A DNA stretch of 64,000 bases from a virus (IMGVR_UViG_3300017973_000001:1-64000); one strand, 5' to 3'; numbered from the stretch's first letter, positions 54,254 to 58,366 are shown. Made by a program: numbers and translations. Notes: generated by a model from the letters alone, not told the origin.

Positions 54254-54473
54254 AGAAGGTTTTTCAATCAATGAAGCTAAGTTTTCAGTGATTGTTCTAA
54301 TGACGTTAATTACGTTTGGTATAACGTTATACCAATTATTCAGTATAGGGCATATTACTAAGTCTTTACTGGACTTATTACAGTACCTATTGATGACTTT
54401 ATTTGGAGTGAATGTTGCAAATGGAGTTACTGGCGCTATATCAGATTTTAATAGCAATAAAGACGATAATTAA
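54237..54473 (+). CDS. Holin-like 2-TM protein
   Basis: Two TM segments; directly before the endolysin. Confidence 0.6.
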   Translation: MKHILKEGFSINEAKFSVIVLMTLITFGITLYQLFSIGHITKSLLDLLQYLLMTLFGVNVANGVTGAISDFNSNKDDN

Positions 54474-54518
54474 CTTTCTACCTATACTAACGTATAAGAT
54501 TAATAGGAGGGGATTAAT

Positions 54519-55262
54519 ATGACGTTTAATATGAAATATAACATCAACAAAGATTACATAGCTAAGGGTACTATGAAACGCCCTGGAAATGGGATTAAAG
54601 TACAATTTATCGTGGCTCATGACACTGGGAACCCTGGTTCAACTGCTCAAAATAACGTAGATTACTATAAACGTGTTGCTAATGAGTCTTATGCTTCAGC
54701 TCATATTTTCGTAGATGATAAGCAAATTCTTGAGTGTATCCCGGCTTTAACTGGTCCTACAGAAAGGGCTTATCACGTAATCTATGATGTTACTAAAGAT
54801 AATGAGTTATTTGGTGTTGACGCAAATGATGGGGCGATTGGAGTAGAGTTTTGCTATGGAAATGGCATTAATTTTACTGAAGCTTACAAGAAGTATGTAT
54901 GGGTTATTGCTTACATCTGCTTTAAGTTTAACATTGACCCACGTAAGAAAATTACTGGCCATTTCATCTTGGACCCGGCTCGTAAAACAGACCCGGTAGG
55001 GGGGCTGAAATTTGGTGGAAAGACTTTCCCACAATTTTTAGCTGATGTAGTTACTGAGTACAATAACTGTATCATTCCGGATCAACAAGTAAAGCCAATA
55101 CCTCAACCAACTGGTGTAACTTATAAAATTCAAAAAGATGATACATTTTGGGGAATAGCTACACGTTTACATATGAATGTAAATGACTTAATGAAGTTAA
55201 ACCCAGGTGTTGATCCTAAAAAGTTATCAGAAGGTATGGAGATTATCATTGGAAAAAAGTAG
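54519..55262 (+). CDS. Endolysin: Amidase_2 plus LysM
   Basis: VAHDTGNP, SAHIFVD, IGVEFC, GHFILDPARKTDP; LysM TYKIQKDDTFWGIA. Confidence 0.93.
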   Translation: MTFNMKYNINKDYIAKGTMKRPGNGIKVQFIVAHDTGNPGSTAQNNVDYYKRVANESYASAHIFVDDKQILECIPALTGPTERAYHVIYDVTKDNELFGVDANDGAIGVEFCYGNGINFTEAYKKYVWVIAYICFKFNIDPRKKITGHFILDPARKTDPVGGLKFGGKTFPQFLADVVTEYNNCIIPDQQVKPIPQPTGVTYKIQKDDTFWGIATRLHMNVNDLMKLNPGVDPKKLSEGMEIIIGKK

Positions 55263-55510
55263 AGGAATATATTAGGCCAACTGAAGCAAGTTCGCCTTTT
55301 ATAGTAAAAGAAGTACCGTACCCAGGAGACTTGAGAAAAGGCTCTAGAGGGGAGGGTGTTAAGTTACTTCAGCAGTACTTAGGAGCTGAACCGGATGGTA
55401 TATTTGGACCTAAGACTGAGAAGTTGCTTATTACCTACAAGAAAAGGGAAAGAATGAAGGACGTTAGTGGAGTTCTTAATTTCATGACCTGGTACAAGCT
55501 TGTTAAATAA
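55259..55510 (+). CDS. Start-less -1-frame extension of the endolysin encoding PG_binding_1 (83 codons)
   Basis: YPGDLRKGSRGEGVKLLQQYLGAEPDGIFGPKTE...SGVLNFMTW; entered via A AAA AAG at 55253-55259. Confidence 0.75.
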   Translation, partial: VEEYIRPTEASSPFIVKEVPYPGDLRKGSRGEGVKLLQQYLGAEPDGIFGPKTEKLLITYKKRERMKDVSGVLNFMTWYKLVK

Positions 55511-55511
55511 T

Positions 55512-55540
55512 AAATACCCACCTTAATCGGTGGGTATTTT
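55512..55540. terminator. Bidirectional terminator
   Basis: AAATACCCACC...GGTGGGTATTT, located after the extension stop codon. Confidence 0.75.
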
Positions 55541-55780
55541 AAAATCTTCTAGAACTGTTCTAACCACAGATATGTCATAACCTAGATGTGGCTCATAAGA
55601 TATTACATACGTATGTTGGTTTTTAAACCTAAGAAAAGTTTTTTTACGTCCTATCCTATGGATAACCTCAGAATTGTTTACTTCATATAGAATACGGTTA
55701 ATACACTGTATCCTATCCTCAATAATATTAACTCTTTGGTTATACCTCATAATCGCATGATCGCCTATCCAAAGTTGTTC
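55523..55780 (-). CDS. RelE/BECR (DUF4258-like) domain, probably expressed as a +1 frameshift extension of the S1 protein
   Basis: EQLWIGDHAIMRYNQRV...YVI...VVRTVL; the motif begins upstream of the first ATG (55750). Confidence 0.55.
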   Translation of the reverse strand, partial: EQLWIGDHAIMRYNQRVNIIEDRIQCINRILYEVNNSEVIHRIGRKKTFLRFKNQHTYVISYEPHLGYDISVVRTVLEDFKIPTD

Positions 55781-56663
55781 AAAGACACTCCTTTGATTGT
55801 TTTTCTATTTCTTTAACAAATAGCATGGAAATGTCCGGGTTAAATACTTTTTGAGCTTCTACAATACTACGCATAGTCCTAACAAGGCCATGTTGTTGTA
55901 CACTGCTCGCTAAAAGGTCTATTGCTTCATCACTTCTTAATTCAATATCTGCAAATTCTTTAATAAATCCGATTACATCTAAAAAGTCTTTTGTTTCTTT
56001 TAATTTCCCAGTATCAGAAGGTGCTATATCTAAAGGTGCAAGGTCAATTTTATTTATATTTTTTCTTTTTGAGTTATCGATACCGATTGTGCTAAGTTCC
56101 ATTTCATTTCGATTATTAATCTTATGGAAACTAGCTTTGATTAGATCGCCTTCCTCAAAGTATTCATGAATATCAGCTATATATGCGTCCTTAATACGTG
56201 ATACATGGACTAATCCTTGATATTTACCATCTAACGTTTTACATACTGCTCCAACATTAGTGAGTACTTTTACAACTTTTAAATCCAATAATTGTCCGTA
56301 GTAGAAAGGGGGCTTGTCAAAAGGTTTACTGTTGGTATCTTCTGAAGATTTATCTTTCAATGACTTGTTTTCTGTACTATAAACGACTTCTCTTTCATCA
56401 ACTTGATTATCTAGTTCGTTATCTAGTGGTGTATCAGTAGAATCATCATCTTTATACAAAAGTTCTTTGACGTTTAAGTCTTTATATATTCTGTAATAGT
56501 AGTAATTTACGTTTGCATACTGCATGTCATATTTAGTACATAGCCCACGGATGAAGTCAACACTAGTCATTTTATTTGTACCTTCAACCAGTGATATTAA
56601 ATAATCGTGAATTTCTTTTTTTAATTCTTCTTTTACTTTTTGTGAAAGCCTATTAGTTGCCAT
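55779..56663 (-). CDS. S1 RNA-binding domain protein
   Basis: GQLLDLKVVKV...GLVHVSRIKDAYIADIHEYFEEGD...ELS; probable ATG 56663 after AAGGAG. Confidence 0.8.
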   Translation of the reverse strand: MATNRLSQKVKEELKKEIHDYLISLVEGTNKMTSVDFIRGLCTKYDMQYANVNYYYYRIYKDLNVKELLYKDDDSTDTPLDNELDNQVDEREVVYSTENKSLKDKSSEDTNSKPFDKPPFYYGQLLDLKVVKVLTNVGAVCKTLDGKYQGLVHVSRIKDAYIADIHEYFEEGDLIKASFHKINNRNEMELSTIGIDNSKRKNINKIDLAPLDIAPSDTGKLKETKDFLDVIGFIKEFADIELRSDEAIDLLASSVQQHGLVRTMRSIVEAQKVFNPDISMLFVKEIEKQSKECL

Positions 56664-56726
56664 ACTGTGCTCCTTTGTAAACACTTTGAAGTTTTTAAAT
56701 TTTTACATAATAAAAAGGGCTATGTG

Positions 56727-56945
56727 CTATAAGCCCTTTTTCATTGATTTTCGGCCATCATTAAACAACTCAAGTTGTTCATTGATCTGTTTGCCGGCCT
56801 CATCCCATGCTGTTTTATAAACGGCAATATGATTTTCGCTTTCTTCAACTTCCACGCTAATTCCGGCATGGAATTGAATTGACTCATAGTTAGGGAGAGA
56901 TTTCTTATAAGTTACCGATACGTTTATGTTGTTTACTTTAGCCAT
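56727..56945 (-). CDS. Conserved phage hypothetical protein
   Basis: Probable start MAKV at 56945; NYESIQF motif. Confidence 0.6.
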   Translation of the reverse strand: MAKVNNINVSVTYKKSLPNYESIQFHAGISVEVEESENHIAVYKTAWDEAGKQINEQLELFNDGRKSMKKGL

Positions 56946-58087: not shown

Positions 58088-58366
58088 CTATAAAATGCTC
58101 TTTAATTTTTCGATTTCATTTTTAAGTATAAGTAGCCCTTCTGTACTGATTATATTTCCATTTGGTAGCTTTATACAATCTGAAGAAACTTTACCAGTAA
58201 TTACACAAGCAGATTCTTTTTCATATTTTCTAAGTACAATACTATCTTCATCTACAAACATTTCAATTGGATCACGGGGTTTTATTCCCCATGTTCTTCT
58301 CATTTCCATAGGTATTACAATTCTCCCAAGTTCGTCCATCTTACGGACTACTCCTGTTGCTTTCAT
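58088..58366 (-). CDS. abrB: AbrB-family transition-state regulator
   Basis: MKATGVVRKMDELGRIVIPME.RR...IVLRKY...CVITG. Confidence 0.93.
   Translation of the reverse strand: MKATGVVRKMDELGRIVIPMEMRRTWGIKPRDPIEMFVDEDSIVLRKYEKESACVITGKVSSDCIKLPNGNIISTEGLLILKNEIEKLKSIL

Follow-up and report, generated by a model that had tools for sequence, protein, structure and literature searches.

A candidate prfB-like +1 frameshift site between an S1-domain gene and a start-less, predicted BECR-fold reading frame in a viral genome

The window analysed here is the first 64 kb (64,000 nucleotides, nt) of the 109,430-bp IMG/VR virus record IMGVR_UViG_3300017973_000001, which has direct terminal repeats and a GC content of 35%. 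On its minus strand we found a gene for an S1-domain protein that ends in CTT-TGA behind a stretch resembling a Shine-Dalgarno (SD) motif, in the manner of the +1 frameshift site of prfB, the gene of release factor 2 (RF2), and that is followed in the +1 frame by an open reading frame (ORF) predicted to encode a domain of the BECR (RelE/ParE/colicin-like) fold. This domain cannot be made whole from a start of its own, and three routes to it therefore come into consideration: a +1 shift at the end of the S1 gene, a stand-alone gene that has decayed, or initiation at an internal ATG at 55750. An S1-BECR fusion produced by +1 frameshifting, functional or at least real, is the reading that we put forward tentatively, as a possibility to be taken seriously without being counted as probable; it explains every feature at once, yet its prior is low and it has no comparative support. 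Decay of a two-gene toxin module accounts for the sequence nearly as well. The features on which the argument turns are as follows.

55782..56663, minus strand: ORF of the S1-domain protein, 294 amino acids (aa), with the start ATG at 56663 and the stop TGA at 55781-55779
56049..56306, minus strand: S1 / oligonucleotide-binding (OB)-fold RNA-binding domain, residues ~120-205, placed by profile and structure matches
55788..55793, minus strand: SD-like AAGGAG, separated by 3 nt from the CTT codon and by 5 nt from an out-of-frame TTG
55778..55784, minus strand: candidate shift site CTT-TGA-A in the S1 frame, with CUU in the P site and UGA in the A site
55765..55782, minus strand: TTG overlapping the stop as TTGA and opening a mini-ORF of five codons (TTG AAC AAC TTT GGA TAG), read from the sequence
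55523..55780, minus strand: +1-frame ORF of 85 codons plus TAA with the predicted BECR domain, from translation, profiles and an AlphaFold2 model
55748..55750, minus strand: ATG, the only canonical start in the +1 frame, giving 75 aa; without an SD and located after the invariant His-Ala
55759-55754, 55747-55745 and 55735-55733, minus strand: codons of His8-Ala9, Arg12 and Arg16, respectively, invariant in a seven-row alignment

Read on the minus strand, positions 55793-55778 consist of AAGGAG (55793-55788), TGT (55787-55785), CTT (55784-55782), TGA (55781-55779) and A (55778), just as described in an earlier note on this DNA, which had also likened the arrangement to that of prfB. The likeness proved close: both the parts and their exact spacing match the prfB site of Paenibacillus sp. 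S-38, a strain carrying a plasmid related to the virus, in which AGGGGG is followed by the same 3-nt spacer (TCT) and then by CTT, TGA and C. In the viral sequence a CUU codon directly precedes the in-frame UGA, the SD-like sequence lies 3 nt upstream of this shift codon, and the +1 frame carries an essential part without a start of its own, its 85 open codons having their first canonical start at codon 11. The combination SD-N3-CTTTGA occurs a single time in the 109-kb genome, while for the looser motif GGAGNNNCTTTGA, counted in any frame, the expectation is 0.19 occurrences per 64 kb, and 18 of 100 shuffled sequences contained it at least once. As evidence the bare motif is weak, being only mildly unusual, and chance occurrences are expected in a very large scan; what is unusual is its position in frame at the end of a gene, with a start-less +1 ORF that encodes a domain coming after it. 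The RNA of 55700-55830 was not significantly structured when folded (z -0.32). Within it, a 7-bp hairpin (UCAAAGG-AGUG-UCUUUGA, 55779-55796 on the minus strand) can form between the SD and the shift site, and in free mRNA it would mask both the SD and the TTG. Translation of the TGA as a sense codon was considered and rejected: the S1 frame would gain only 13 codons before a TAA, without reaching the BECR frame, and TGA ends around 22% of the long ORFs in this genome.

The +1 frame begins with GAA at 55780, stops at a TAA (55525-55523) inside a terminator-like hairpin and is closed upstream by a TAG at 55807-55805, with no ATG, GTG or TTG before the ATG at 55750, so that the extent of this frame and its want of a start are as the earlier note had them. 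Two non-canonical starts, ATA (55768) and ATT (55753), were judged unlikely, neither having a suitably placed SD. The annotated ATG had been said to lack a good ribosome-binding site and to cut the HA..R...R motif of the domain, and both statements were confirmed: the 22 nt before it contain no GGAG, GAGG or AGGA, and His8 and Ala9 of the motif are encoded upstream of it. Moreover, two PHROG families without assigned function, phrog_19545 (E 4e-4) and phrog_8252 (E 1e-2), weakly match the 85-aa form of the protein, whereas neither matches the 75-aa form that starts at the ATG. When all six frames were searched with phrog_19545, the alignment began with profile position 2 at 55783, where the S1 gene stops. 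Both matches depend on the ten residues upstream of ATG 55750, and the domain needs these residues.

The upstream gene starts at ATG 56663 behind AAAGGAG (56676-56670) and a 6-nt spacer, and its protein bears a genuine S1 domain, as had been proposed. The NCBIfam S1-domain model NF004473 matched with an E value of 1.8e-10 and the GSP13/CvfD models with 4e-9 to 7.5e-9, the overall range of these NCBIfam models across residues 120-205 being 1.8e-10 to 1e-7; further matches were to the S1 domain of PNPase (7e-4), to Rrp5 and to the structure of GSP13. The Pfam S1 model scored 15.9 bits, under its 22-bit cut-off, and the flanking N- and C-terminal regions have no profile matches.

Using the phrog_19545 and phrog_8252 profiles, we searched 400 genomes of the class to which Paenibacillus sp. 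S-38 belongs and retrieved a set of motif-sharing proteins, comprising a 73-aa protein (P0126), a prophage-like protein of ~90 aa, the TIGR02530 flagellar-operon protein and a conserved 145-aa Paenibacillus protein (P0005). Common to all of them is strand-HA(I/V)xR(Y/F/W/L)xxR, together with a second helix and, at the C-terminus, a hairpin whose end reads hydrophobic-V-x-T; in P0126 the HA is at positions 9-10. In the seven-row alignment no row departs from the His8, Ala9, Arg12 and Arg16 of the +1 ORF. A larger alignment (A3) was left unused, its C-terminus being misaligned.

Whereas a single-sequence AlphaFold2 model of the +1 domain (predicted local distance difference test, pLDDT, of 48) and the Foldseek search made with it were uninformative, the seven-row alignment yielded a best model with a pLDDT of 79.3 and a predicted template modelling score (pTM) of 0.68, the other four models staying below 52. 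In this model the topology is E-H-H-E-E-E-E, with strands at residues 2-5, 38-43, 48-53, 56-63 and 70-78 and helices at 7-17 and 23-35, such that residues 2-17 make up strand 1 and helix 1. Foldseek against the PDB returned top matches that are nearly all RelE, YoeB, YafQ, HigB or ParE (E 4e-3 to 0.1, probability 0.85-1.0, template modelling (TM) score 0.5-0.58), and VIA-align against 48,161 representatives placed 6l7q first at Z 9.2, followed at Z 5-7.5 by ParE1, PrpT, RelE1, colicin D tRNase, MqsR, Cami1, YoeB, YafQ, BrnT and CdiA-CT; the scores of both programs for BECR members are moderate. In BFVD the matches were many small uncharacterised phage proteins (E 1e-4 to 1e-3, TM up to 0.75), along with entries that bear the names DUF4258, colicin D, cytotoxic translational repressor and MuF C-terminal domain, and the model of the 75-aa form in the ESM Atlas itself has PBECR1, PBECR3, HigB and RelE clusters among its neighbours. 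Because the three structure searches agree with one another and with the ESM Atlas neighbours, we accept a BECR fold, with moderate confidence, as the best reading of the modelled domain.

The suggestion of the earlier note that the extension resembles DUF4258/RelE-like BECR RNases therefore held for the fold, AlphaFold2 and Foldseek giving a BECR-like domain with RelE, ParE and YoeB nearest in the PDB, and failed for family membership. The DUF4258 (PF14076) and PBECR1 (PF18809) profiles had no match at E<=10 in a six-frame search and none in a Pfam scan, and hhalign of the +1 domain against 12 DUF4258 sequences gave a probability below 1%. Padloc and Pfam scans of the extension likewise returned nothing, and PDB sequence searches with the extension or with alignment A2 returned nothing meaningful. 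In colicin-like BECR proteins, among which DUF4258 has been placed too, the active-site histidine is in the first helix (bioRxiv 10.64898/2026.08.28.747851), and by analogy His8 may be the catalytic residue here; judged from its modelled fold, the domain is probably a ribonuclease (RNase).

Should the site be active, most ribosomes would stop at the UGA (55781-55779) and release the 294-aa S1 RNA-binding protein, while a minority would slip by +1, the peptidyl-tRNA-Leu moving from CUU to UUU and GAA being read next. Pairing between the anti-SD and the AAGGAG 3 nt upstream would aid the slip, as would slow action of RF2 at the UGA. Shifted ribosomes would read 85 more codons and make a 379-aa protein, with the junction peptide ECLEQLWIGDHAIMR, in which the C-terminal BECR-fold domain is tethered to the S1 domain. 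As the prfB of Paenibacillus sp. S-38 has such a site, the ribosomes of the genus, with their tRNA-Leu and RF2, should already shift there. There is also a precedent in phages of low-GC Gram-positive bacteria, the tsh gene of Listeria phages PSA, A118 and A500, which shifts +1 at CCC_UGA (PMC5009743), and the convergent endolysin gene only 300 bp from the site has a candidate recoding signal of its own. The occurrence of the shift, its efficiency, an RNase or toxin activity of the domain and control of the product ratio by the RF2 level are all inferences. The full proposal, in which the phage took over an RF2-sensing signal for a small dose of a RelE-like RNase tethered to S1 and not expressible by any other route, seems to us rather doubtful.

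The site shares with prfB the internal SD, the 3-nt spacer, CUU in the P site, UGA in the A site and a product that continues in the +1 frame. It differs in that the gene is not prfB, so that its product would not feed back on RF2, and in that the shift would take place at the end of a complete 294-codon gene and not near codon 25; its SD is AAGGAG, whereas that of prfB is G-rich, and the stop is followed by A where prfB has a conserved C. With tsh of the Listeria phages it has in common a pause at a stop codon, a +1 shift and a C-terminal extension on part of the product (PMC5009743), although the tsh sites use CCC as the shift codon, have no described SD stimulator, concern structural proteins and are experimentally verified. 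At ~85 aa and with a predicted strand-helix-helix-four-strand fold, the extension resembles RelE/ParE and the colicin-like BECR RNases (DUF4258/Ntox49, PBECR, colicin D, CdiA-CT). It also has an HA..R...R motif in the first helix, as in DUF4258, and a last strand of the form hydrophobic-V-x-T-V; it gave no Pfam or hhalign match to DUF4258 or PBECR1, only the HA..R...R motif being shared, and has no identified antitoxin. A BECR domain at the C-terminus of a larger targeting or sensing protein is also found in Cami1 (CARF-RelE) and in MuF-PBECR phage head proteins, and Cami1 and MuF C-terminal proteins are indeed among the structural matches of the +1 domain model; those are in-frame fusions, whereas the fusion here would need recoding. 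A combination of S1 and BECR was not found.

A good deal weighs against the fusion. The earlier note had looked to relatives for a conserved SD-NNN-CTT-TGA or for natural in-frame fusions, and the tblastn and protein searches supplied no relative of either part: no homolog was found carrying an in-frame fusion or a conserved CTT-TGA signal. The +1 ORF is a sequence orphan, matching only itself in megablast and tblastn against GenBank phages, in a word-indexed search of 5.8 billion proteins and in IMG/VR peptide-pattern scans, and only itself and one junk tandem-repeat translation in an exhaustive phmmer search of 1.84 billion representatives; the S1 protein, too, matched only itself in the word-indexed search. 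(A back-translated motif scan of IMG/VR gave one match, in an ATPase, which was dismissed as chance.) The S1 gene and +1 ORF, hereafter the cassette, are absent from the five related replicons, four phages and the Paenibacillus plasmid, and no antitoxin or immunity partner for the BECR domain was identified. As to the fold, it comes from the one confident model of five, made with a shallow, hand-assembled alignment of weakly related rows, and the closest structural matches in BFVD are stand-alone phage proteins of 90-116 aa. The consensus of prfB sites is YTT_TRA_C (PMC3711429), from which the A at 55778, already remarked upon in the earlier note, departs, and a lower efficiency is therefore to be expected. 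All of the CUU-stop +1 sites in RECODE belong to prfB (PMC10274946), which makes for a low prior in a gene other than prfB and for a new use if the case is real. Finally, the SD lies 5 nt before the TTG that overlaps the stop as TTGA, a short spacing, yet one found at 4 of the 73 predicted strong-SD starts in the genome and comparable to those at its overlapping gene junctions, and the SD may therefore be an initiation signal; in two of the motif-sharing bacterial ORFs, an in-frame Met lies 7-8 residues before the HA motif, which corresponds to the position of the S1 stop here.

Several of these observations bear on a different origin, according to which the present sequence may be a broken toxin gene. 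The locus would once have been a coupled module (AAGGAG, 5 nt, TTGA) whose stand-alone toxin gene was silenced by a 1-nt deletion just after the TTG, for instance in an A run; the likeness to prfB would be a by-product, the SD having served initiation and CTT being one of the 16 NNT codons that can stand before TGA, and today nothing useful would be made, or a five-residue peptide and perhaps a truncated 75-aa protein. The TTGA overlap, which CTT-TGA contains of necessity and which is the TTG form of the common ATGA overlap of start and stop, lies behind a strong SD with a spacing known from predicted starts and speaks for this, as does the mini-ORF, which lies one base out of register with the domain and whose TTG may be the remnant of its former start. 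One extra base after the TTG would yield Met-x-Gln-Leu-Trp-Ile-Gly-Asp-His-Ala, with HA at positions 9-10 as in P0126, and the Met of the motif-sharing ORFs falls where the TTG falls here; the best BFVD matches stand alone, evidence of conservation for recoding is lacking, and the explanation relies on ordinary biology only. Toxin genes are, moreover, often found inactivated. What makes us consider decay somewhat unlikely nonetheless is that it needs a rare indel within two codons of the start together with the coincidence of a CTT (about 1 in 16) and of the exact prfB spacing, and that the ORF is otherwise intact over 85 codons up to the terminator. Furthermore, the resulting site would still be expected to shift somewhat in a host with the same prfB signal, and at this point decay shades into the fusion. 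The two are in fact compatible, as the leftover SD and CTT-TGA are expected to give some +1 product, which selection could keep. Given the TTGA overlap behind the SD, the position of HA in P0126 and the stand-alone structural matches, a coupled two-gene module is very probably the ancestor of the cassette; most likely a base directly following the TTG was lost from such a module, in which an SD preceded a TTG overlapping the TGA. The interpretation in the earlier note is thus upheld in part: the site architecture, the missing start, the predicted BECR fold and the S1 domain stand, and the possibility of TTGA-coupled genes had been overlooked.

The base in question might also be missing from the data only, the real phage having one more base after the TTG and a normal coupled pair of genes. 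This is a single metagenome assembly at ~11x depth, and 300 bp from the site an A6 run in the endolysin gene marks a second break of frame. The assembly-indel check raised in the earlier note gave a reassuring result: a contig made by a different assembler (Logan, from a peat metagenome, k-mer depth 10.8) agrees exactly with the record from 54400 to 56800, without indel or variant, which speaks against an assembler artefact although the contig was built from the probable source run and so, using the same data, is no independent confirmation. The putative missing base, furthermore, lies outside any long homopolymer, the run being AA, and we regard such an error as very improbable. Somewhat more room, although still little, is left for an ordinary small gene of 75 aa that starts at ATG 55750 by re-initiation after termination 29 nt upstream, the likeness of the preceding +1 codons to the HA..R motif being then fortuitous or dispensable. 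Re-initiation near a stop is known in bacteria, the ATG is the only canonical start and the choice of gene callers, and the 75-aa form is the one held in the database and in the ESM Atlas. Against this, no SD precedes the ATG, both PHROG matches vanish in the 75-aa form, and the invariant His-Ala is lost along with strand 1 and half of helix 1 of the modelled fold, the first helix being where colicin-like BECR proteins have their active-site histidine (bioRxiv 10.64898/2026.08.28.747851); the 75-aa product is unlikely to be the functional one. A further explanation concerns the role of the S1 protein, which would serve the BECR protein as antitoxin or immunity partner; any frameshift product would then be an antitoxin-toxin fusion rather than an RNA-targeting effector. 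The order of antitoxin then toxin, typical of RelE/ParE modules, and the insulated two-gene cassette fit this idea, RelE/ParE and DUF4258 modules have their antitoxin upstream, and there are single genes in which toxin and antitoxin are fused (PMC11980606). It is nevertheless improbable in our view, as a 294-aa S1-domain protein is unlike known antitoxins and no antitoxin family matched it.

If the S1-BECR fusion is real, prfB-type recoding would for the first time be seen outside prfB, and a toxin-like domain would for the first time depend on recoding alone for its expression. The dose of the effector would rise when termination at UGA slows in the host, and the CUU-UGA plus SD device would be a portable module rather than a peculiarity of prfB, by which mobile elements could let the condition of the host termination machinery govern how much of a dangerous protein is made; S1-BECR would also join the known ways to aim RelE-like nucleases. 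If it is not real, the locus is a warning that any TTGA overlap behind an SD automatically looks like a prfB site if CTT is the last sense codon, and comparative or experimental support is therefore required in scans for +1 recoding.

The helicase of the virus is 57-60% identical to its counterparts in four viral records of 112-125 kb and in the 121-kb plasmid of Paenibacillus sp. S-38, on account of which the host is probably a Paenibacillus-like member of the Bacillota and the virus probably a phage or phage-plasmid of roughly 109 kb that infects Paenibacillus. The plasmid (unnamed1, complete, 120,923 bp; L007) has three genes adjoining the helicase (57% identity) in common with the virus as well, which fits a lineage of phage-plasmids. 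The last gene shared with these relatives is the homolog of an ORF at 56727-56945; the cassette comes after it, in a region whose gene content differs in every related replicon, and is accessory cargo. No tRNA genes are encoded in the window. Two hairpins border the cassette.

56710..56740, minus strand: GC-rich hairpin with a T run (AAAAAGGGCT..AGCCCTTTTT) directly after the preceding gene, read from the sequence
55512..55539, minus strand: intrinsic terminator-like hairpin with a T run, found by a hairpin scan, overlapping the end of the +1 ORF and its stop at 55525-55523

The upstream hairpin, which the scan had missed because its loop exceeds 8 nt, is probably a terminator that insulates the cassette on that side, and the downstream palindrome also falls just beyond the end of the convergent endolysin unit (55510). 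With hairpins on both sides of the two ORFs, we regard the cassette as insulated. A gene at 58088-58366 (minus strand), which belongs to the strand block of the S1 gene and lies 1.4 kb upstream of the S1 start, encodes a 92-aa protein with a strong match to phrog_4681, 'antitoxin from a toxin-antitoxin system' (E 2.7e-31); no obvious toxin adjoins it.

At 55247-55510 (plus strand), the convergent amidase-LysM endolysin ORF ends in GGA AAA AAG TAG. From the A_AAA_AAG heptamer its -1 frame is open for 83 codons, encoding a linker and a PG_binding_1-like segment (GSRGEGVKLLQQYLG..DGIFGPKT), with a TTG within the domain as the sole start in that frame. A second candidate for recoding, of the -1 type, or else a homopolymer indel lies here, 300 bp from the S1 site.

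Among the motif-sharing proteins, P0005 and around 700 relatives (L010:1429-1866, L011:1429-1866) are 145 aa long and 70-80% conserved across Paenibacillus. They have the motif I-x-[DN]-HAI-x-RYN-x-R and a basic C-terminal tail, are annotated as hypothetical or 'periplasmic protein' and belong to no Pfam family. P0005 was rejected as a homolog of the +1 ORF, sharing only the N-terminal motif with an hhalign probability of 23%, and was kept as a lead. In the TIGR02530 flagellar biosynthesis protein (L034-L039), the conserved core has the HA..R...R motif and a VVS..IIT hairpin like that of the phage domain, together with a weak N-terminal match to DUF4258 (E 0.016); whether this flagellar-operon protein has a BECR-like fold may be worth a look. 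The gene of P0126 is present in genome G209 in two identical copies 1.2 kb apart (L040:1498-1794, L040:2704-3000), each of which overlaps the end of an upstream ORF, and this arrangement suggests a tandemly duplicated module.

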